A stretch of DNA of 64,000 bases from an uncultured Lachnospiraceae bacterium. Lineage in GTDB: Bacteria; Bacillota; Clostridia; Lachnospirales; Lachnospiraceae. Position 1 is the stretch's first letter. Every line of letters starts with the position of its first letter. Below the pieces are notes generated by a model that saw nothing but the letters and a program-made list of their open reading frames with translations, was not told the origin of the DNA and did not search any database. The position numbers were made by a program, and so were the translations under genes. Shown in pieces: positions 4,800 to 60,300 of the stretch. The DNA lies in assembly GCA_900316075.1 (NCBI GenBank), contig ONBT01000008.1:664-64663 (forward strand), read 5' to 3'.

Positions 4800-4800
4800 T

Positions 4801-5143
4801 GTAGGGGATGTCGTTTGCGTGAAAAGGCTTGAAATTGTCCCTTCCAAGGTCTGTAGGGGATGTCGTTTGTAGAGAAAGGCAAGAAATTGTCCCTTCCAAG
4901 GTCTGTAGGGGATGTCGTTTGCAGAGAAAGGCAAGAAATTGTCCCTTCCAAGGTCTGCAGGGGATGTCGTTTGCAGAGAAAGGCAAGAAATAGCCCCTTC
5001 CAAGGTCTGCAGGGGATGTCGTTTGCAGGGAAAGGCAAGAAATAGCCCCTTCCAAGGTCTGCAGGGGATGTCATTTTCAGAGAAAAGCAAGAAATAGCCC
5101 CTTCCAAGGGCTGTAGGGGATGTCATTTTCAGAGAAAAGCAGA
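4801..5143. repeat. 52-bp tandem repeat, 6 full units plus a 31-bp partial
   Basis: Units start at 4801, 4853, 4905, 4957, 5009, 5061 and 5113. Consensus is gyaggggatgtcgtttgcagagaaaggcaagaaattgtcccttccaaggtct. The array fills the whole spacer from the GH18 stop to the tsaC ATG. Confidence 0.95.
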
Positions 5144-43453: not shown

Positions 43454-44296
43454 TTGGAAACAAAGAGAAAAACTTATGACGAACTCACCTTCACGGATGA
43501 CTTCATGTTCTGTGAGGTGCTGCGGAACCATCCGGAGCTCTGCAAGGCACTGGCGGAGCTGGTGACCGGCAGGAAGGTACAGTCTGTCCGCCTGCCTCAG
43601 GCGCAGATGTCGGAAAAATTCCTGTATGAGGGCAAGGGCGTTCGCTTCGATATTACCTTTGAGGATGATGCTCATACGAATTATGACATCGAAATGCAGA
43701 CGGTCCTGAAAGCAGGCATTTCTAAGCGCAGCCGCTACTACAGCAGTATGATCGACATGTACCATCTGAAACAAGGGACTGAATATTCAGCCCTACCGGA
43801 TTCGTACATCGTCTTCATCTGCTTGGAAGATCCGTTCAAGAAGGATATCGCCCGGTATACATTCCATGAAACATGTGAGGAACTGCCGGACTATCGCCTG
43901 GAGGACGGAAGGACAACCATCTTCATCAATTCCAAGAGCTCGAACGGAGCTTCTCCGGAACTGCTGGAATTTTTTGATTACCTGAACGGCCAAGGCCCTA
44001 GTTCTCCTTTGACAAAAGCAATTGAGAAAGCGGTCCTGGACCAAAAGGATAGTGAAGAAGGGAGAATACGTTATATGACTCTTGAAGAACACTACAAAGA
44101 GGAACGGGAAATCGGAAAAGCAGAAGGCATAGAAATCGGAACAGAAAAGGGGATAGAAATCGGAACAGAAAAAGGAATAAAAATCGGTAAGTCCGAGATG
44201 ATTCAAAATGCTGTGGCTGCCGGAAAATCTGTGGAGCAGATTGCAGATGTCCTGGGTCTTTCCGTAAAAGAAGTTCAGCGGTTTTGCCAACTCTGA
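43454..44296 (+). CDS. Rpn-family recombination-promoting nuclease / putative transposase (PD-(D/E)xK)
   Basis: TYDELTFTDDFMFCEVL, VRFDITFED..YDIEMQ and KRSRYY motifs. C-terminal GIEIGTEKG repeats. TTG start 6 nt after aaggaga. Confidence 0.75.
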   Translation: METKRKTYDELTFTDDFMFCEVLRNHPELCKALAELVTGRKVQSVRLPQAQMSEKFLYEGKGVRFDITFEDDAHTNYDIEMQTVLKAGISKRSRYYSSMIDMYHLKQGTEYSALPDSYIVFICLEDPFKKDIARYTFHETCEELPDYRLEDGRTTIFINSKSSNGASPELLEFFDYLNGQGPSSPLTKAIEKAVLDQKDSEEGRIRYMTLEEHYKEEREIGKAEGIEIGTEKGIEIGTEKGIKIGKSEMIQNAVAAGKSVEQIADVLGLSVKEVQRFCQL

Positions 44297-48697: not shown

Positions 48698-48758
48698 ATT
48701 TGCGGCCTAATTTACGGACTTTTTACATTATTCATCAGAAAATATGCGGAGGAAAGAC

Positions 48759-49946
48759 ATGGCAGGCAGCATCGGAAATGAAGATTTACTGACCAGAAAA
48801 CCGGTCGCACCCTTAGGGCTCATTCCCTTGAAGAGCATCGAGTCGATCGGGTCCAAGGTCGACAAGTTCCTGCTCGAATGGCGGGCGGAGCGGCCCATCG
48901 ACCACCTTGACAGCGTCGAGCAGCAGGATTACGCCAAGGACACCTTCATTATCAATACGAAGTGCCCCCGTTTCGGCTCCGGCGAGGCCAAGGCTACGAT
49001 TTCCGACTCCATCCGGGGCCTGGACATCTACATCCTGGTCGATGTCATGAACTATTCCCTGACCTATTCCATGTGCGGGCAGACGAACCACATGTCCCCC
49101 GACGACCACTACGCGGACCTGAAGCGGACCATCGCTGCCATCGGCGGCAAGGCCCATCGGGTCAACTGCATTATTCCTTTCCTCTATGAATCCCGCCAGC
49201 ACAAGCGGGCCTCCCGGGAGTCCCTGGACTGCGCCGTAGCTCTGCAGGAGCTTGTGAATATGGGCGTGGACAATATCATCACCTTCGATGCCCATGATCC
49301 CCGGGTCATGAATTCCATCCCTCTTCACGGATTTGAATCCATCCGCCCCGCCTACCAGTTCATCAAGAATATCTGCAAGAAGGTCAAAGACCTGCAGATT
49401 GACAATGACCACCTGATGATCATCTCCCCCGACGAGGGCGCCATGGACCGGGCAGTCTATATGGCAAACGTCCTCGGTGTCGACGTCGGCATGTTCTATA
49501 AGCGCAGGGACTATTCCCGTGTTGTCGACGGCCGCAACCCCATCGTCGCCCACGAATTCCTGGGCGATTCCGTCGAAGGCAAGGACGTCATCATCATCGA
49601 CGACATGATTTCCTCCGGCGAGTCCATGATTGACGTGGCGAGACAGCTGAAGAAGCGCAAGGCGAACCGGATTTTCGCGGTTTCCACCTTCGGCCTCTTC
49701 ACGAACGGCCTCGAGGCCTTCGATCAGGCGGTGGAAGACGGGGTCATCTACAAGGTCGTCACGACAAACCTCGTATACCAGACCCCGGAGCTTTTAGACC
49801 GGGAGTGGTACATCTCCTGCGATATGTCGAAATACATCGCTTATATCATCGATACCTTGAACCACGACTGCAGCCTTTCCTCCCTGCTCGATCCTTCGGA
49901 GCGGATCAACAATCTCCTCAAGAGATACCGGGCCGGTGAATATTGA
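48759..49946 (+). CDS. prs: ribose-phosphate pyrophosphokinase (long form)
   Basis: PRPP-binding loop VIIIDDMISSGESM. Start set at ATG 48759 behind GGAGGAAAG. Confidence 0.9.
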   Translation: MAGSIGNEDLLTRKPVAPLGLIPLKSIESIGSKVDKFLLEWRAERPIDHLDSVEQQDYAKDTFIINTKCPRFGSGEAKATISDSIRGLDIYILVDVMNYSLTYSMCGQTNHMSPDDHYADLKRTIAAIGGKAHRVNCIIPFLYESRQHKRASRESLDCAVALQELVNMGVDNIITFDAHDPRVMNSIPLHGFESIRPAYQFIKNICKKVKDLQIDNDHLMIISPDEGAMDRAVYMANVLGVDVGMFYKRRDYSRVVDGRNPIVAHEFLGDSVEGKDVIIIDDMISSGESMIDVARQLKKRKANRIFAVSTFGLFTNGLEAFDQAVEDGVIYKVVTTNLVYQTPELLDREWYISCDMSKYIAYIIDTLNHDCSLSSLLDPSERINNLLKRYRAGEY

Positions 49947-49974
49947 GAATAATATTTTCGCCATTGGTTACTGA

Positions 49975-50012
49975 GCCGGGCGGCGCGAACGAACGCGTCG
50001 CCCGGCCTTTTT
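49975..50012. terminator. rho-independent terminator after prs
   Basis: gccgggcggcgcg-aacgaa-cgcgtcgcccggc followed by cttttt. Confidence 0.75.
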
Positions 50013-50074
50013 GTCACCTGCCCGCATCGCTACGTCTGCTGCCGCCTGCGCGGTGCCTGTGTTGCCTTGGTGGG

Positions 50075-50488
50075 GCAAATACCGCCCATCGCCGTCATCC
50101 CTGAAAGTTCAAATCAGAAAAGCAAGTCGCTCACGCGGCGGATCCGGGCAAATACCGCCCATTGCCGCCATCCCTGAAAGTTCAAATCAGGAAATCAAGT
50201 CGCTCACGCGGCGGATTCGGGCAAATACCGCCCATATTTTTCATCGCCGGACGCCTGAAGCCCCAATGCATGGGCGGTATTTGTCTCAAATTGCCTGCCC
50301 TGCGACTTGTTTTTCATTTCTGAGCTCCGCCCATGCATGGACATGGGCGGTATTTGCGTGTGGGCGGCGGTTTAGCGACCAGGATTCATTCCCTTAGATC
50401 TTCCCGCCGCGCCGCATGGGCGGTATTTGCGTGCGGCCGGCACTTTTGCGACCGGACTTCCTTTTCCTGAGCTCCGTCTGCCGCCCGC
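50075..50488. repeat. 73-bp repeat array: three direct units followed by three inverted units
   Basis: Core GCAAATACCGCCCAT at 50075, 50148 and 50221. Its reverse complement ATGGGCGGTATTTG at 50270, 50343 and 50416. Exact 73-bp spacing within each arm. Confidence 0.9.
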
Positions 50489-50510
50489 ATCCCAAAATTC
50501 CCGCCAGCCC

Positions 50511-50538
50511 TCAAGAATCTCTGTCCCTTGTCCGATAG
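50511..50538 (+). promoter_or_regulatory. sigma-28 (FliA/SigD)-like promoter
   Basis: TCAA, 16-nt spacer, TCCGATAG, compared with the consensus TAAA-N15-GCCGATAA. It lies about 75 nt upstream of the flagellin start. Confidence 0.45.
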
Positions 50539-50613
50539 CATAAATAGCAGATTATTCTTTTTCAGGGCTTTCTTTACCTAATGTATCACTGAATAGACAG
50601 CGGGGCGACAGGG

Positions 50614-53449
50614 ATGTCAATGATTATCCAGCACAATATTCAGGCCATGAATAGTAGCCGCATGCTCGGCATTACGACCGGGCTGCAGGCCAAGTCCACG
50701 GAGAAACTGGCTTCGGGCTACAGGATCAACCGGGCGGCGGACGACGCGGCCGGCCTTGCCATATCCGAAAAGATGCGGAAGAAGATCCGGGGCCTGAACC
50801 GGGGCCAGGACAATACCATGGACGGTATTTCATTTGTCCAGGTCGGAGACGGGGCCATGGGCCAGGTGGCAGACATGATCCAGCGCATGAATGTGCTGGC
50901 TGTTCAGGCTGCCAACGGCACGAACTCGGCTTCGGACCGCGAGGCCATCCAGGGCGAAGTTTCCCACCTCAAGAAAGAAATCGACCGGATCAATGAAACG
51001 ACAAAGTTCAATGAAATGAACGTATTTTTACAGGACGAACCGAATATTGCGGAAGTGGAACTGTCCGTGACCGGAAAACCGGACACCCACGACGACCTCA
51101 ATTTCTTCCGGGACGATAATGGAAATGCCGCCGGCATCATTTTCACGGCTACCGGGTCAAGTGGGAAGATATTGATGCAGATCTTTATGATGCAAAAACA
51201 AATACATTTCATAAATGGATGAAGATGTCGGAAATTATGAACTGCATTATCACGGCATGGTTCTTGGACTGAATTTCATTTCCTGCGAAAGCCGCGGGGA
51301 CGAGATCAATGCCGTGAATTACGGCGGAACGAAAAGCATTATTTATGAATGGCATGAGCAGCCGGACGGGACGGAAAGCGATGTGGCTGTAGACGTTGCC
51401 GGGGGCGGAACCCTGACGGTAGACGATGAAAATGGCTACAACAAGAAATCCATGCTTTCGAAATTCGGTGCGGAGGCAAAATTTACAGTGAGGGCGGACG
51501 ATACCGGTGTCTGGCTCACGCACAATGGCTCTGAAGTGACCGGCTCGAAGAAGGCCTGGAAAGACCTGGTCACGATTTCCGCCTCGACATCCACCGACCC
51601 GGACAATAGAGTGACTCCCCTTAATGGAGAAAATACCGGGGGGATCGACGACGAAGACTGGACGGAGAAGCAGGATATTGCCGCCCACGATGATGCCTCG
51701 TTCAAGAACTACCGCTACTACTATATGGATGACGACGGGACAAACGATACCTATATTAATTTCGCGTTTTCCGTCGCGGACAATATCAGCAAAAAGCAGC
51801 TGATTGCTGGAATAGACGGCATTGAGGTCACGAGTGAACTGTCGAATTCCTATACGGCAAAGGCAGAGGGCGGGGTCGGCACCACGATAAATGATGTCAC
51901 CACAAAAGGGTCCGGTAAGTTTCTGACCTTTGAGCAGGAGGTGGCCTTCGGAAGGAATTTCTCTGAAAAAAACGGGACACTTACAGCAACAGGCAGTGTG
52001 ACAAGTGCTTCAGCTGCGGACGGAGCAGCCCTGGAGTTCTCTGCGGGCGGTCAGTCTGTGAAATTGAACGCCGGGGGAAATGAGGTAAATGCTACCTTGT
52101 CCGGCCTGCAGTCTGCCCTGTCTTCCCATATTGCCTATGCGGCTGACGCGGCAGTGGATCAGCTGGCTTCCGCCCAGGCTTCTGAGGACTCGGCCCGCCG
52201 GATTACGTCTTCTACAGGTTCATATACCGACCGAAAGACTGCGGATATCAATCTGAAATTTACAAACGGAGAGACCGGCGACGAGGAAAAGGCCATTACC
52301 ATTTCAGCGGCAAGGGACGTTTCAGTTGATGCACCGAATGTCACGGCCGATTTTGCTACTTCTTCAAGCGGAAAAGATGCCAAGGCCGGCGGCAAATACA
52401 TGGATGAGACGGAATATTCTTCGAACCGGAAGAGTACTTACGACACGGCATATAATAATAAGAAATCCGCACTGACGAGCTCCGACCAGGATGTCCGGCA
52501 GGCGGACAGTGATTATAATACCTGTCAGAAAGCCCGGACGGATGCGGAAGCAGCGGAGCGGACGAAACTGATTAACGGCCTTTCGGCGGACGAAAAGACC
52601 GCATATGACAACGCAAGGGCAGCCGGAAAGTCAGATGATGAAGCCCTGCAGGCAGCAGGCGTCTCTATCTCGTCAATAGCAAGTCAGGGCGAAACGGCCT
52701 ATCAGGCAGCCGTTAAGACAGCTGCTGAAAAGGCCGGGACAAATGCTCTGTAAACAGCAGGCTATGAGAAAACATTTGCCGATGCGGACAAGTACGGCAT
52801 TCAGGTTTCGTTCGGGTCGGAAAAAGTTGTCTATGATTCTGCCTCCGCTTTCAGAAACAGCATTGGGGCCAAGGCTCAAAGTCTTTCGGACAATTTAAAG
52901 ACGACCTCCCTTGACAATTTCCGCAAGGGCCTCTCCGTTTCACTGACCTCAGGCAAAGAAACGACAATTACCCGCTCCGGCCTGGAGAGACGGACCGCGA
53001 CAGACCGGTATACATTTTCTACGGAAATCCGTCCGATTATCAGAGAAGAGAAGATTGACTATGTGGGGATCCAGCACTCGGACGATCTCCCTGACCGGAC
53101 GGTAATCACGCGTTATAATAATTCAACCCGCAGCCTCGGACTGAAGGCCTTCAGTGTGCGGACGGAAAATCAGGCGACCCACGCAATCGACCTGGCAAAG
53201 AATGCCCTGGCCAAGCTTTCCGCCCACCGGTCCGCCTACGGCGCCATGCAGAACCGCCTCGAGCACACCTACAACTCCCGGGCGAATATGGAGGAGAACA
53301 CCCAGGCTGCCGAGACACGGATCCGCGACACGGATATGGCCGAAGAGATGGAGCGGTACAGCAAGAATAATATTCTCGCCCAGGCAGGACAGGCCGTTCT
53401 GGCCCAGGCCAATAATTCCAACCAGGGCGTGCTGGCCCTCCTGCAGTAG
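50614..53449 (+). pseudogene. disrupted giant flagellin gene
   Basis: Flagellin N-domain (50614-51222, LASGYRINRAADDAAGLAISEKMR) and C-domain (ends 53449, AMQNRLEHT..NILAQAGQAVLAQAN) are in different frames. The frame switches around 51160-51220. An in-frame TAA lies at 52751-52753, and the frame is otherwise open from 51215 to 53449. Confidence 0.75.
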
Positions 53450-53463
53450 CATCCTGAAAAATC

Positions 53464-53730
53464 ATGACTGAAGAAAAAATGTATGACAAATATGTTGACA
53501 TCACGGATGTGGTCTGCCCGGTCACTTTCGTGAAGGCCAAGGTCTCCTTCGACGAGATGGAGGTCGGTCAGGTCCTCCGGGTCCATATGAATGCCGGGGA
53601 CCCCAGCCGCAACGTCCCCCGTTCCTTCAAGCTGGAGGGGCAGAAGGTCCTCGAACTCTCCGACAACCACGACGGGACCTGCGAGATGCTTGTTCAAAAG
53701 GTTTCCGAGGAGCCGGAGCGGTACTCGTGA
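53464..53730 (+). CDS. TusA/SirA-like small sulfur-carrier family protein
   Basis: 88 aa. DVVCPVTFVKAK..GQVLRV pattern resembles the TusA CPxP fold motif. Confidence 0.6.
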   Translation: MTEEKMYDKYVDITDVVCPVTFVKAKVSFDEMEVGQVLRVHMNAGDPSRNVPRSFKLEGQKVLELSDNHDGTCEMLVQKVSEEPERYS

Positions 53731-54074
53731 ATCGGAAGACCGGCCCGGCGCTTTCACGCACCACCGCGTTACTGCGTTCTGCATATAGAAACAGTTGCAT
53801 AACCGGTTATTGAAGATTTTTTCGTTTTTATGTATAAAAAATGTAAAATGTCGCCCAAAAAATTTATGCAATTTGTTGTGCCTGCCCTGCAACTTATGCT
53901 ATACTGTCATCAAGATTTTCCAATACCCGTATTGTAAGCGGGTAATTGGACGGGGAGTGCGGGAAAGAGGCCTGTCAGCAGCTTGCGGAAACGGCGCGGG
54001 CAGAAGCGCGGGCCCGCTTTCGGGAGTCCGGCTTCCCGGGTGTGTGAGAAACTGCATGAATAGAGGTGACTGGA

Positions 54075-55349
54075 ATGATGCACAAAGAAATGATTGCCAT
54101 GCTCCTCGCGGGCGGGCAGGGCTCGCGTCTCGGCGTCCTCACCAGCGACGTTGCGAAGCCGGCTGTGGCATTCGGCGGGAAATACCGGATCATCGACTTT
54201 CCGCTCAGCAACTGTATCAACTCCGGAATCGACACCGTGGGCGTACTTACCCAGTACCAGCCCCTGGCCCTGAACCAGCATATCGGTATCGGTATTCCGT
54301 GGGACCTGGACCGCAATGACGGCGGCGTTTCCGTCCTCCCTCCCTATGAGCGGAGCGACAACAGCGAGTGGTATTCAGGCACGGCGAACGCCATTTACCA
54401 GAACCTCCAGTATATAGAAGGCTACGATCCCGACTACGTTCTGATTCTCTCCGGCGACCATATCTACAAGATGGACTACGAGGCCATGCTGGACTTCCAC
54501 AAGCAGAACCAGGCGGATGTGACGATTGCCGCGATTCCGGTTCCCATGGAAGAGGCTTCCCGCTTCGGTATCGTCATCACGGATGAGAACAAGCGCATCA
54601 CCGAGTTCGAGGAGAAGCCCGAGCACCCGCGGTCGAATATGGCTTCGATGGGCATCTATATCTTCTCCTGGCCGGCCCTGAAGGAAGCCCTGATTGCCCT
54701 GAAAGACCAGAGCAACTGCGACTTCGGCAAGCATATTATTCCATACTGCCACGAAAAGGGCGAGCGTATCTATGCCTTCGAGTTCAACGGCTACTGGAAG
54801 GACGTCGGAACCCTCGGCTCCTATTGGCAGGCGAATATGGAGCTCATCGACCTCATCCCGGAGTTCAATCTCTATGAGGAGTTCTGGAAGATCTACACCA
54901 AGCAGAGCCTGATTGAGCCCCTGTATGTGGCGGACTCGTCGACGATTTCGAAATCCATTATCGGCGCGGGCTGCCGGATTCACGGCGAGGTCACGAATTC
55001 CGTCCTCTCGGCCGGCGTCATAGTGGAAGAGGGGGCCTGCATCCGCGATTCCATTATTATGAAGAATACCGTCATCCACAAGGGTGCGTACATTGAAAAG
55101 TCCATCATAGCGGAGCGCTGCGAGATCGGCGAAAACACGAAGGTCGGCGTCGGCGACGAGCTGGAGTCCAAGCTCAACGCCTCCATCTACAGCTTCGGCC
55201 TGGCCACCATCGGCAACGGCAGTGTCATTCCGGCGAATGTAACCATCGGCAAGAACACCGCAATCAAGGGCGTTACGGACATGAACGATTATCCGAACAA
55301 CAGTCTTGAGGGCGGCGGATATATCATTAAGGCAGGTGATGTAGCATGA
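54075..55349 (+). CDS. glgC: glucose-1-phosphate adenylyltransferase
   Basis: [15 protein letters not shown] and GTANAIYQN motifs with a left-handed beta-helix C-terminus. Confidence 0.9.
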
Positions 55350-56464
55350 AGGCACTCGGAATCATACTTGCAGGCGGCAACTCCCAGAAGATGCGGGAAC
55401 TCTCCGAAAAGCGGGCCATTTCCGCCATGCCCATTGCCTGCAGCTACCGCAGCATTGACTTCTCCCTTTCGAACATGACGAATTCCGGCATTCAGACCGT
55501 GGCGGTGCTTTCCCAGTACAACGCCCGCTCCCTGAATGAACACCTGAATTCCTCCAAGTGGTGGAATTTCGGCCGCAAGCAGGGCGGTCTCTTCCTCTTC
55601 ACCCCGACTGTCACGGCGGACAACTCCTGGTGGTACCGGGGCACGGCCGACGCCATGTGGCAGAACATCGACTTCCTGAAGCAGCGGCACGAGCCCTACG
55701 TCGTCATTTCAAGCGGCGACTGCGTCTACAAGATGGACTTCGGGCCGGTGCTCGACTTCCATATCCAGAAGCAGGCCGACATCACCATCGTCTGCGCCCA
55801 CGCGCCCGAGGGGGACGACATCTCCCGTTTCGGTACCGTGAAGATTGACAATGAAGGCCTTGTGACCGAGTTTGAAGAGAAGCCCATGATGGCCCATTCG
55901 AATATCGTCTCCACCGGCACTTACATCATCCGCCGGCGGAAGCTGGTCGAGCTCCTGGAGCAGTGCAACCGCGAGGGCCGCTACAATTTCGTCACGGATA
56001 TCCTGGTCCGCTACAAGGGCATGAAGAAGATTTACGGCTACATGCTCGACGATTACTGGTCGAATATCGCCACGGTCGAGTCCTATTACCGGACGAATAT
56101 GGACTTCCTGAAGCCCGAGGTTCAGGACTTCTTCTTCCGCGAGGATTCGAAGATCTACTCCAAGGCCCAGGACCTGCCGCCCGCCAAGTTCAATGTCGGC
56201 TCGGGCGTCAAGAACAGCCTCATCGGCTCCGGCTGCATCATCAATTCCTACGTGGAGAACAGCGTCATCTTCAAGCGGGTCTTCATCGGGAACAATTCCA
56301 CGGTGAAGAATTCCATCATCATGAACGGGGCTTACATCGGGGACAATGTTCACGTGGAGAACTGCATCGTAGAGAGCAATGAAACCCTCCTCTCCGACCA
56401 GAACTACATCGGGGAGAACGAAATCAAGGTCGTCTTCGAGCGGAAGAACCGCTACGGGGTCTGA
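55346..56464 (+). CDS. glgD: glucose-1-phosphate adenylyltransferase regulatory subunit GlgD
   Basis: Paralogue of GlgC with a degenerate N-terminal loop ([14 protein letters not shown]). Overlaps the glgC stop by 4 nt. Confidence 0.85.
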
Positions 56465-56678
56465 CTTGCAGTGAGTGAAAAATCGTGCTATTATGCCGGG
56501 AGCATTGGCACGGAAACAGTGACTTTCAGGGGACCTGCCTTTTGGCGGGTCCCTATTATTTTGCCGTTCAAATGCAAGCTTTCCGTCCCATATAGATGCT
56601 CCATGAGAATAATATAAACCGCAGGGGTACCTCCTCTGCGGCACTTTGGCGTACAGCGAAAAGAAAGGAACGTCTGAT

Positions 56679-57242
56679 ATGTATATCGTAGCCGGCCTGG
56701 GGAATCCGGGCCTCAAGTACCGCCACACCCGCCACAATACGGGGTTTGATGCCATAGACACCATGGCAAAGGCTTTAGGGTGCGACGTGAAGAAGGACGA
56801 GTGCCGGGCAAAGACCGGAAGCACGGTCATTGCCGGGCAGAAGGTCCTCCTTGTAAAGCCCCAGACCTTCATGAATCTTTCCGGCGAGTCCCTGCAGGCC
56901 CTGTGCGCTTATTATAAGGTGAATCCCGAAGAGGGCCTGATTGTCATCTCCGACGACATCGCCCTGCCGGCCGGGAAAATCAGAATCCGCCACAAGGGCT
57001 CGGCCGGCGGCCACAACGGACTCAAAGACATCATCAAAAACTGCGGGACGGATGCCTTCGTCCGCCTCCGGATTGGGGTCGGCACCCTGCCGGCAGGCCA
57101 GGACATGATTTCCTTCGTCCTCGGCCGCGAGAGCAAGGACGACCGTCGGGCCGTGGAAGAGGCCTTCGAAAAATGCCTGCCGGCGGTTGAGACCATTATT
57201 ATGCAGGGAACAGAGAAAGCCATGTGCGCCTTCAACGGGTGA
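56679..57242 (+). CDS. pth: peptidyl-tRNA hydrolase
   Basis: MYIVAGLGNPG..YRHTRHNTGF and GSAGGHNGLKDI motifs. Confidence 0.9.
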   Translation: MYIVAGLGNPGLKYRHTRHNTGFDAIDTMAKALGCDVKKDECRAKTGSTVIAGQKVLLVKPQTFMNLSGESLQALCAYYKVNPEEGLIVISDDIALPAGKIRIRHKGSAGGHNGLKDIIKNCGTDAFVRLRIGVGTLPAGQDMISFVLGRESKDDRRAVEEAFEKCLPAVETIIMQGTEKAMCAFNG

Positions 57243-57381
57243 TGGGCGGTATTTGCGTTTAAATGCAAGAAAAGAGACCCACAAATTCCTTGCAAGCCCA
57301 AAGCATGGGCGGTATTTACATTTAAAAGCAAGAAAAGAGACTCTTATAATCCCATCAAGCCCGAAGCATGGGCGGTATTTG
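57242..57381. repeat. 63-bp tandem repeat (2.2 units) with the same ATGGGCGGTATTT core as the 50-kb array
   Basis: Cores at 57242, 57305 and 57368. The array fills the pth-mfd spacer, and the first core overlaps the pth stop codon. Confidence 0.85.
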
Positions 57382-57395
57382 TACAGGAAGCGACT

Positions 57396-60300
57396 ATGAG
57401 CGACATATATACCCAGGCCATACAGGGTCTGGCGGAAATTGACACGCTGCGGGATGCCCTGAAGAAGGGGACGGGCTCGCAGGGAGCGCTCGCCCTGGGC
57501 GGCGTCTCCGACAGCGCGAAGAATCTCGTCCTCTACGGGGCCGCAGGCGACATCCCCTGGAAGATCGTGGTCTGTGAGAACGACCGGACGGCGAAGGAGC
57601 GGGCGGCAGAGTACGCCTGGTTCGACGAGAACACGGTCTTCTTCCCGGGGAAGGACCTTTTGTTCTATCAGTCCGACCTCCGGTCGAACGAGCTCACGCG
57701 CGAGCGGATCAAGGCCATAGACGCCTTTCTTCACAAGGACCGGCTCACGATCTTTGCGAGCGCATCGGCCCTCATGAATATGCTGCCTCCGCGGGAGAAT
57801 TTCGAAAAGGGCTTCATGACGATTTCCGACCTCGACACCATAGAGCCGGATGCCCTCATAAAGCTCCTTGTGAAGAACGGCTATGAGAATGTGACGGAAG
57901 TGGCCGGACCGGGAGAGTTTACGTCCAGAGGTGGCATCATAGATGTCTTCCCCCTGACGGCAGAGTACCCGGTCCGTATGGAATTCTTCGGGGACGAAAT
58001 CGACTCCATGCGGACATTCGACACCGAGTCCCAGAAGTCCATAGAAAAAATCGAATCCTTCACCCTCTGCCCGGCCGGCGAATTCATCGTGAGCGGAGAG
58101 GAGAAGGCGGCCGGAATCAAGGCTGTGAAAGCCGACCTGAAGAAACAGTATGACACTTTGCGGGAAGCGAAGGAGACCGAGGCCGCCTTCCGCGTCAAGA
58201 CCCGGCTCGAGGACTTCGAAGAGGCGGTGGAGACCGGCTGGTTCGGCCAGGAGTTTGAGACCTACCTGCCCTATTTCTGCAAAAAGGCCGTATCCCTGAC
58301 GGACTGGCTGCCCAAAGAGGGCAGCCTCCTCGTCTTCGACGAGCCCTCAAGGATTTCAACCGCCGTCAAAGGCATTTCCGACGAATTTTCCGAGTCCATG
58401 AAACGGCGGATTGAAACCGGCGAAGCCGCCCCCCGCCAGGCGGAACTCCTTTTCTCGGAGGAGAGCACATACGCTCGCTGGGGCTCGCTCCCGGGCCTTA
58501 CATTATCCATGCTGGACTATACGAAGGGGAAGATCAGGGTCGCTGCCCGCTACTACATCCACACGACCGAAGTCGTCTCCTACCGGCGGGATTTCGACCT
58601 CTTCACGAAGGACCTGGCCAAGTACCGGAAGAATAAGTTCCGGGTAGCCGTCATCTCCCCTTCAAGAACCAGGGCAAAAAAACTTGCCGAGGACATCCAG
58701 TCCTACGGGGTCAACTGCTACTACAGCGAGGACCTGGACCGGGATACGGTGCCCGGGGAAATCATCGTCACCGTGGGGGGACTCACCACCGGCACCATCA
58801 TCGACGCCTCCGGCTGGGTCTTCATCACGGAGACGGACATCTTCGGCTCTTCGGTCCGCAAGAAGACGCGGAAAATCAAGCGTTACACGGGCGGGGAGAA
58901 GGTCCGGTCCCTGAGGGACCTGCATGTGGGCGACTACGTCGTGCACGAAAACTACGGCCTGGGCATCTACCGGGGCCTGGAAAAAATCGACGTGGGCGGG
59001 GTCACCAAGGACTACATCAAGATCGCCTACGCCAAGGGGGACAACCTCTACATCCTGGCCACCCAGTTCGACATGATCGGCAAGTACTCCGGGGCCGAGG
59101 GGAAGAAACCCAAGTTAAATGCATTAAACTCCCGTGAGTGGAGTGAAACCAAGTCCCGCGTCAGGAAGGCCGTCGGTGAGATTGCGGACGACCTGGTGGA
59201 GCTCTATGCCGAGCGGCAGCAGGAGACAGGCTTTGTCTACAGCAAAGACGGGCAGATGCAGCGGGAGTTCGAGGACAACTTCCCCTACGAGGAGACCGAC
59301 AGCCAGCTGGCCGCCATCGAGGACGTGAAGAAGGACATGGAATCCCCGAAGATCATGGACCGCCTCATCTGCGGAGATGTGGGCTACGGGAAGACCGAAG
59401 TCGCCCTGCGTGCCGCCTTCAAGGCCGTCTGCGACGGGAAGCAGGTCGTCTATTTATGTCCCACAACAATTCTGGCCGAGCAGCACTACAATACCTTCAC
59501 GGAGCGCATGAGTCCCTTTGCGGTTTCAGTGGCCATGATGAGCCGCTTCCGCAGCGCCGCTGAAAACAAGAAGACCGTATGCGGCCTGAAAAACGGGACC
59601 GTGGACGTCTGCATCGCCACCCACCGGGTCCTGTCCAAAGACGTGGCCTTCAAGAACCTGGGGCTTTTAATTATTGATGAGGAACAGCGCTTCGGGGTCA
59701 CCCACAAGGAGAAGATCAAGAAGCTGAAGAAGAATGTCGACGTCCTCTCCCTTTCGGCGACCCCCATCCCGCGGACCCTCCACATGAGCCTGGCCGGCAT
59801 CCGGGACATGAGCCTTCTCGAAGAGGCCCCCGTCGACCGCATGCCCATCCAGACCTTCGTCATGGAGCGGAGCCCGGAAATCGTCCGGGAAGCCATCGAC
59901 CGGGAACTGGCCCGGGGCGGGCAGGTCTATTATGTTTACAATAAGGTAAAGGACATCGCCGACGTAGCCGCGGAAATCCAGAAGCTGGTGCCCGACGCCT
60001 CCGTCGCCTTCGCCCACGGGAAGATGTCGGAAGGGGACCTGGAGTCCATCATGAGCGACTTCATCAACCGCCGCATCGACGTCCTCGTGGCCACGACCAT
60101 CATCGAAATCGGCCTCGATATCAGCAATGTAAACACAATCATCATCCACGACGCCGACCGCCTGGGCCTCTCCCAGCTCTATCAGCTCCGGGGCCGGGTC
60201 GGCCGCAGTAACCGCACCGCCTACGCCTTCCTCATGTATCGGAAGGACCGGATGCTTGCTGAGGTGGCCGAAAAGCGCCTGGCTGCCATCCGGGAGTTCA

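Follow-up and report, generated by a model that had tools for sequence, protein, structure and literature searches.

Dispersed intergenic repeats are known from a few well-studied bacteria, and what maintains their sequence and geometry is mostly unresolved. NIME arrays consist of dRS3 repeats, 20-bp inverted repeats of the consensus ATTCCC-N8-GGGAAT, separated by RS units of 19 to 214 bp with no fixed period; they differ in unit number between close relatives and flank gene-replacement regions, and recombinase binding is the proposed explanation (PMC1797815). REPs are high-copy extragenic palindromes of 20-40 bp, often located at the 3' ends of genes; BIMEs are mosaics of variable unit number in which orientation alternates, and REPINs place two inverted repeats around a short spacer (PMC3116915). 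The pneumococcal BOX element, boxA-(boxB)n-boxC, is a composite intergenic repeat of a Firmicute, with distinct ends, variable internal tandem modules and a predicted stem-loop, and its length varies between strains with module number (PMC3049150).

In this study, a palindrome located between prs and a flagellin gene was analyzed in a 64-kb window, the whole stretch of DNA under study, to which all unlabeled positions refer. The source genome (G000) and all genomes with which it was compared are metagenome-assembled genomes (MAGs). We consider it fairly likely that the palindrome arose as a single insertion of a mosaic repeat that is non-coding and lineage-specific, with a module that is probably read by a protein, and that it is not a regulator of flagellin. 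The palindrome (50075-50488) has two arms. The left arm (50075..50235, reverse strand) carries GCAAATACCGCCCAT three times, at 50075-50089, 50148-50162 and 50221-50235 (core starts at 50075/50076, 50148/50149 and 50221/50222). The right arm (50270..50505, forward strand) consists of three units, each with the reverse complement, ATGGGCGGTATTTG(T/C), as its first part, at 50270, 50343, and 50416. The core-to-core steps across the array are 73, 73, 48, 73, and 73 bp. Nine core matches with at most one mismatch were detected in the window versus 0.02 expected from shuffled sequences, none of which reached nine. Two full 73-bp units, 93% identical to one another, make up the left arm, with the box CAAGTCGC at 50123-50130 and 50196-50203; the right-arm box, at unit positions 33-40, is GCGACTTG, GCGACCAG or GCGACCGG. 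The facing cores enclose a 34-nt centre (50236..50269), identical in sequence at the orthologous site of the sister species G005. A GC-rich terminal module lacking the GACTTG box (50016..50074, ...gcctgtgttgccttggtgg) abuts the outermost core on the left and is multiplied in G005; on the right, homology with G005 stops at about 50505. A small palindrome, CCGCCCATG-CATGGA-CATGGGCGG (50327..50350), arises where the tail of the first right-arm unit contains part of an inverted core. This palindrome folds as DNA at -11.4 kcal/mol (z = -4.2) and was kept in array 1 and lost in array 2 of G005. The first-pass annotation had described opposed arrays with a strict 73-bp spacing within each arm, a symmetry centre near 50252, arms that are homologous but diverged outside the core, and the additional short palindrome. 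Our measurements agree with it on all of these points: the symmetry centre, calculated as the midpoint of the 34-nt segment, is 50252.5, and the arms are 72-73% complementary outside the core.

The anatomy of the unit was derived from a logo anchored on the core, for which 71 units with the 73-bp period and 53 with the 63-bp period were taken from the source genome and a sister species. Two blocks are conserved, positions 1-15 (ATGGGCGGYATTTGC) and 33-40 (G-N-GACTTG); the remainder is variable. The unit plan is a 40-bp module (15-nt core, 19 variable nt, and the GACTTG box), after which a linker of 23 or 33 bp brings the period to 63 or 73 bp. Cores of the same orientation are 63 bp apart in 63 cases and 73 bp apart in 76, with few exceptions. 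Unit tails from different loci are 51% identical in register compared to 25% when shifted, indicating that they are homologous, old, and almost free of indels; within an arm the identity is 82%. Opposed neighbours are arranged minus then plus, with cores facing each other, and 17 of 24 have the 48-bp spacing that leaves a 34-nt centre. The plus-then-minus order was observed at close range in one pair only, involving a two-mismatch match in contig C56. From one element lineage to another the 34-nt centres vary in sequence, but each of them includes a short palindrome and is similar to the last 17 nt of a unit tail. Judging from these sequences, the opposed form looks like the fold-back of a tandem array, which would later have spread and diverged. 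Small ORFs were rejected as an explanation: frames in the 63-bp array run for just 6-20 codons, and 73 is not a multiple of 3. No orientation rule of the arrays relative to transcription was found.

A scan of the source genome revealed 46 cores (with up to one mismatch) versus one for a reversed control. The family is spread over at least 10 intergenic sites, the neighbour genes of which are functionally unrelated. Seven loci show the opposed minus-then-plus arrangement, one-way arrays fill the pth-mfd and uvrB-uvrA spacers, an element is also located upstream of rsmI, and solo cores occur in other spacers. The pth-mfd array is the second one of this core family in the window (57242..57381, forward strand); its three cores are spaced by 63 bp, and it extends from the stop codon of pth to the ribosome-binding site of mfd. 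The first-pass annotation had allowed for a core present only here and at 57.2 kb, which is not what the whole-genome scan and the relatives show. The exact core was detected in four of the eight species of the genus, with 92 copies in G005, 30 in G000, 16 in the half-complete G002, and 5 in G001; of the 53 other genera sampled, two had single matches at chance level. In the genomes searched, the core is confined to four sister species, all belonging to a single uncultured Lachnospiraceae genus. A search for a two-core pattern that covered 185,579 species, with one genome each, matched only MAGs titled Lachnospiraceae and one contig titled Bacteroides. The same pattern had no match in viral contigs, which speaks against a phage origin. 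No autonomous element, with two arms around a gene, was found, and a literature search for a described Lachnospiraceae repeat family returned nothing relevant. Two other regions were recorded in the course of the survey. On G005 contig JAZASQ010000041.1 (locus L014), an 8-kb accessory region encodes a cell-wall-binding repeat protein, a PIN toxin, and a DUF4143 ATPase, and almost all of the gaps between its genes are filled by a single young subfamily, with four or five elements in total. A second 73-bp family (GAGAAGAATCTTCT...GAAATTTCTCC) is interleaved among these elements. On contig C49 of the source genome (14023-14856), two fold-back arrays bracket a 277-aa ORF that has a PD-(D/E)XK-like motif (YPDF...IWEHFG) and matches nothing in Pfam or NCBIfam; the G005 orthologue of this ORF also adjoins arrays.

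The core family is one of several. Tandem Repeats Finder, applied to the whole genome, identified 137 arrays with a period of at least 30 and modes at 52 and 73 bp; about 99-100 arrays of these period classes account for 0.83% of the genome. Several families are present, with the cores GGGGATGTCATTTGC, TTGGCGGACTTTTGTC, GGGGTGTCAAAATTTGA, and GGGGNCAAATGCAA, and the TTGGCGGAC family is distributed over the same species as the core family of the prs array. The families share one plan, core15 + N19 + box6 + a linker of 12, 23, or 33 nt, which gives 52, 63, or 73 bp. The 52-bp form is represented in the window by an array of 6.6 units (4800..5141, forward strand) with the core GGGGATGTCGTTTGC and the 12-nt linker; this family has about 100 cores in the genome. 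The GGGGNCAAATGCAA family has periods of 62, 72, 83, and 94 bp. At 10.4 bp per turn, the periods 52, 62/63, 72/73, 83, and 94 bp are within 0.11 turn of 5, 6, 7, 8, and 9 helical turns, and a 56/57-bp family is off whole turns. The fit holds for five of six period classes (binomial P = 0.0025), a statistic that was devised after the periods had been seen and that treats related families as independent tests, which they are not. A Fourier test of the A/T profile of the units was specified before looking. The helical harmonic ranked first or second in four family/period sets (permutation P 0.002-0.017) and third in two more; the 56/57-bp control family showed no helical signal (P = 0.65). It is the 40-bp module that carries the signal (P = 0.005), not the linker, which therefore behaves as a spacer constrained in length rather than in sequence. 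The 56/57-bp family (GGTTCCTGACCCCC, 89 hits) is very abundant on contig C44, and about 95-bp direct repeats of it flank a fold-back element on contig C56 (12200-12800).

Orthologous sites may be filled, empty, or held by a sister family. The last case is seen in an orthologous spacer (C67), where G000 has a 52-bp family (GGGGATGTC) and G005 and G002 have a 63-bp family (ATGGGCGG); the units of the two align over about 40 nt. At the prs site G000 has 3+3 units and G005 has 5+2 around the same centre, and the differences between them are whole units. In G001, the prs terminator is followed by 110 bp and then flagellin, with no array; in outgroup species a different gene follows prs. The region downstream of prs in G002 (L051) matches G000 exactly through the terminator and the first unit, though prs itself is just 89% identical; the second core then jumps to the right flank at a CCGCC microhomology, which may represent a real deletion, assembly collapse, or MAG chimerism. 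The pth and mfd genes have overlapping stop and start codons in outgroups, and their spacer contains a 76-nt degenerate remnant in G001, three cores in G000, and six in G005. At the C77 site G005 has at least 11 units where G000 has a solo core. The C21 site is filled in G005 and the C59 site in G002, and both are empty in G000. At these two sites and at prs, the boundaries between filled and empty alleles are blurred by intergenic divergence, and no target-site duplication is definable.

An inversion or a change of copy number between strains had been raised as something to look for. Whole-unit changes do occur between species, but the orientation of the centre is the same in G000, G005, and an independent metagenome contig. 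An inverton was rejected on the basis of these three assemblies and because the centre follows the polarity of the arms in nine of nine elements of one subfamily. The arrays are not CRISPR arrays either, since the segments between cores are homologous (within arms and between loci, as given above) and not unique spacers. Between G000 and G005 (L050) the prs array is 95.8% identical over the aligned part of 50073-50505, compared to 88% for the prs gene and 76-84% for the pth-mfd units. Selection on the whole array or recent exchange could account for this conservation; a purely neutral element would explain neither of the two. Where G000 has the flagellin region, G005 has two unrelated genes, which lie between two direct copies of the array that are 87% identical over 435 bp and have the same centre.

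The genes next to the palindrome in the window are as follows. Upstream, prs (48744..49946, forward strand) encodes ribose-phosphate pyrophosphokinase with the Pfam domains Pribosyltran_N, Pribosyltran, and Pribosyl_synth. It is followed by an intrinsic terminator (49975..50012, forward strand; 13-bp GC-rich stem and T-run) that is conserved in G005, G002, and G001, and the array lies downstream of this terminator. A motif TCAA-N17-CCGATA (50511..50537, forward strand; TCAA-N16-TCCGATAG when counted to the 8-mer), identified by inspection only, begins 5 nt past the end of the element; we take it to be sigma-28-like in comparison with the sigma-D/sigma-28 promoter consensus, and it was also compared with G001. 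No sigma-70 promoters were found in 49800-50700. The core resembles TGG...TTGC; however, by inspection GG and GC are one base too close for a sigma-54 promoter, in which the -24/-12 spacing of these elements is invariant. The downstream gene is a broken flagellin paralogue (50614..53449, forward strand), with Flagellin_N at 50614-51222, a middle ORF at 51215-52753, and Flagellin_C at 53063-53449. A stretch of 609 bp in its middle region (51658-52266) is absent from an otherwise 97-99% identical metagenome contig (L067). The source genome is otherwise flagellate, with FlhA and five further Flagellin_N-family loci.

The inverted arrangement could in principle be an assembly artefact of a repeat-rich MAG: core-family members are often found at contig ends in related MAGs, and G002 has a collapsed or deleted version at the prs locus. 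This is hardly credible. The independently assembled metagenome contig Ga0256404_1016272, which differs by 3 substitutions in the 674 bp of 49947-50620 (99.6% identity), has the same six cores in the same 3+3 layout and spacing, making a misassembly very unlikely; in addition, G005 has the same centre and arms with other unit numbers, and the architecture recurs at seven loci. The first-pass annotation had also proposed that the array could present six phased binding sites just upstream of a sigma-28-like promoter, and the cores might accordingly be read as operators of a regulator of the adjacent flagellin gene. The phasing stands (73 bp corresponds to 7.0 turns), and the element does stop 5 nt short of the motif, but the link to flagellin is unsupported. 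The orthologous flagellin of G001 keeps its CCGATA promoter-like motif without any array, and the orthologous prs array of G005 precedes unrelated genes. No core was found near any of the five other Flagellin_N-family loci in the source genome, the downstream gene is split into separate ORFs in both independent assemblies, and the same element occurs at many unrelated loci (upstream of rsmI, uvrB-uvrA, pth-mfd). The array is therefore not conserved with the promoter in orthologues and paralogues, as a flagellin/sigma-28 regulatory region would be, and a role as operators is very improbable. The copy at prs would instead be an incidental insertion between a terminator and a promoter rather than a dedicated regulator, and a tempting but unsupported link to flagellin regulation is removed.

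The palindrome had further been suggested to form a cruciform or a long RNA hairpin. The hairpin is thermodynamically possible: the whole 441-nt element folds as RNA at -187 kcal/mol versus -152 for shuffled sequences (z = -6.6), and the centre hairpin has z = -3.5. Extrusion of a cruciform is doubtful, because a perfect stem of just 15-19 bp encloses a 34-nt loop and complementarity between the arms is about 72%. If the element acted as RNA, a read-through hairpin might terminate, insulate, or stabilize the mRNAs of neighbouring genes, as REP and BOX can. Its position directly after the prs terminator is consistent with such a role. So is the enrichment of arrays of these families between convergent genes, where two 3' ends meet (23 of 77 versus 17.8% expected, P = 0.0065, with gene calls from a crude ORF picker); the same enrichment also counts in favour of the mosaic repeat. 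Some arrays also extend to the ribosome-binding site of the next gene and must be transcribed. However, single 63/73-nt units fold no better than shuffled sequences (z from -0.2 to -1.6), the core has no complementarity to the box, and no Rfam 15 family matched 49000-58500 at E up to 1. A one-way array lacks a partner for a hairpin, such arrays point both ways with respect to the genes that flank them, and periods in multiples of 10.4 bp are a property of duplex DNA and not of RNA. An RNA role for the arrays is less likely on these last grounds, together with the unfolded single units, and we regard the hairpin explanation as quite improbable. A recombination platform is also unlikely, though less so. 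The arrays would then be host-useful docking modules, comparable to NIME, that are bound by a lineage-specific recombination protein and provide portable homology for gene exchange; a nuclease of the Rpn family is a candidate for this protein. Rpn, a recombination-promoting nuclease/putative transposase family (TIGR01784, 115 bits), has four copies in G000 and is the only multi-copy gene family of this genome. Close homologues were found only in the repeat-rich G000, G005, and G002, and the 3' ends of two copies in G005 and of a paralogue in G002 lie directly against core arrays. The gene replacement between direct array copies in G005, the helical phasing of the module, and the NIME precedent (PMC1797815) fit as well. 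On the other side, none of the four Rpn-like genes of the source genome adjoins an array, the two G005 cases are paralogous copies that may reflect a single event, and the co-distribution rests on one clade of three to four species. Many arrays flank housekeeping genes (pth-mfd, uvrB-uvrA, rsmI, prs), and a recombination product was not directly observed. The link between Rpn and the repeat arrays is a lead only. One of the four Rpn copies is located in the window (43454-44296), and all four share a conserved upstream leader (...ccggacggctcggatttcacattattcttctac...).

Returning to the lineage-specific mosaic repeat as the preferred explanation, we found it dispersed over intergenic sites of four sister species, with whole units gained or lost between them. 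Units would be gained and lost by unequal recombination or replication slippage between identical cores. A sequence-specific DNA-binding protein may read the 40-bp module on one face of the duplex, and such reading would maintain the invariant core and box and the whole-turn linker lengths. Such a protein might belong to the host, or it might be the recombinase or transposase by which the element spreads; neither a partner protein nor a transposase was identified for the repeat. From its conservation and helical phasing, the module is probably a protein recognition site. A wider proposal is that the approximately 400 units of the superfamily serve as docking sites for a lineage-specific DNA-binding or recombination protein, again with Rpn as the candidate, and that genes are swapped between arrays; we rate this as rather unlikely. 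If true, the modules would be read on one helix face with whole-turn linkers aligning the bound proteins, which would make the arrays a Firmicute counterpart of the mechanism proposed for NIME, with a gene swap as at the G005 prs locus. The geometric signal is unusually clean, as homologous units of 52, 63, and 73 bp differ only in a linker stepped by one turn. Since A/T patches recur at every turn of the 40-bp module, phasing mutants would allow a direct test of the hypothesis that proteins form a lattice on one face of the DNA. In practical terms, the arrays break contigs in rumen and gut Lachnospiraceae MAGs and create artefactual ORFs; they could serve as strain-typing loci.

The element belongs alongside NIME, BIME/REPIN, and BOX in kind, and it fails the defining sequence and structure tests of each (PMC1797815, PMC3116915, PMC3049150). 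Like NIME, it has a short conserved repeat regularly interspersed with family-limited spacers in intergenic regions, variable unit numbers among close relatives, and arrays that flank a gene-replacement region, and recombinase binding has been proposed there (PMC1797815). Unlike dRS3, the core is not self-complementary, and ATGGGCGGYATTTGC does not correspond to the dRS3 consensus; the periods are quantised at 52, 63, and 73 bp, in contrast to the RS units (PMC1797815). The fold-back arrangement is not a feature of NIME, the host is of another phylum, and an integrating phage or recombinase is not linked to the arrays here. The high copy number, the extragenic location, often at gene 3' ends, and the mosaics of variable unit number are shared with REP and BIME, and the core-N34-core centre recalls the two inverted repeats of a REPIN (PMC3116915). 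However, the unit is not a short imperfect palindrome and does not fold alone as REPs do, and each arm is a direct array, unlike the alternating BIME (PMC3116915). The core-N34-core form, at the 17 of 24 junctions noted above, always lies inside tandem arms, and many arrays are one-way. A link to RAYT was rejected: Y1 transposase-like genes (PF01797) are present in seven of the eight species of the genus, including species without the core. No core with up to two mismatches was found within 1.5 kb of the three PF01797 genes of G000.

With BOX the element shares the composite, intergenic Firmicute character, internal tandem modules of variable number, distinct ends, and a predicted stem-loop, but BOX has a single tandem block whose two ends differ, where the element has a pair of opposed arrays, and no helical quantisation is reported for it (PMC3049150). 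No sequence relationship to boxA-C is apparent, with Rfam as the only scan. For a comparison with miniature transposable elements (MITEs), the arms are inverted; a target-site duplication is not definable amid the intergenic divergence, no autonomous copy was found, and the Rpn-like gene family is only a lead. Outside bacteria, the Foldback (FB) elements of Drosophila have long inverted arms of tandem sub-repeats, variable arm length, and a short or absent central loop; their sub-repeats are 10-31 bp, and some copies have coding loops. The inverted arms of tandem sub-repeats, with a length that varies between copies, and the short centre are common to both; FB elements differ in being eukaryotic, in the size of their sub-repeats, and in the coding loops of some copies, an autonomous form that was not found in the present family. 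Plasmid iterons and the sopC centromere are tandem protein-binding sites at whole helical turns, present as single loci beside the gene for the binding protein. The spacing at whole turns is shared with the family studied here, which differs in occupying many chromosomal sites without an adjacent cognate gene. No described family matches, and the family is undescribed. It is distinctive in combining fold-back arms made of direct tandem units with a linker that is quantised in helical turns across sister families.
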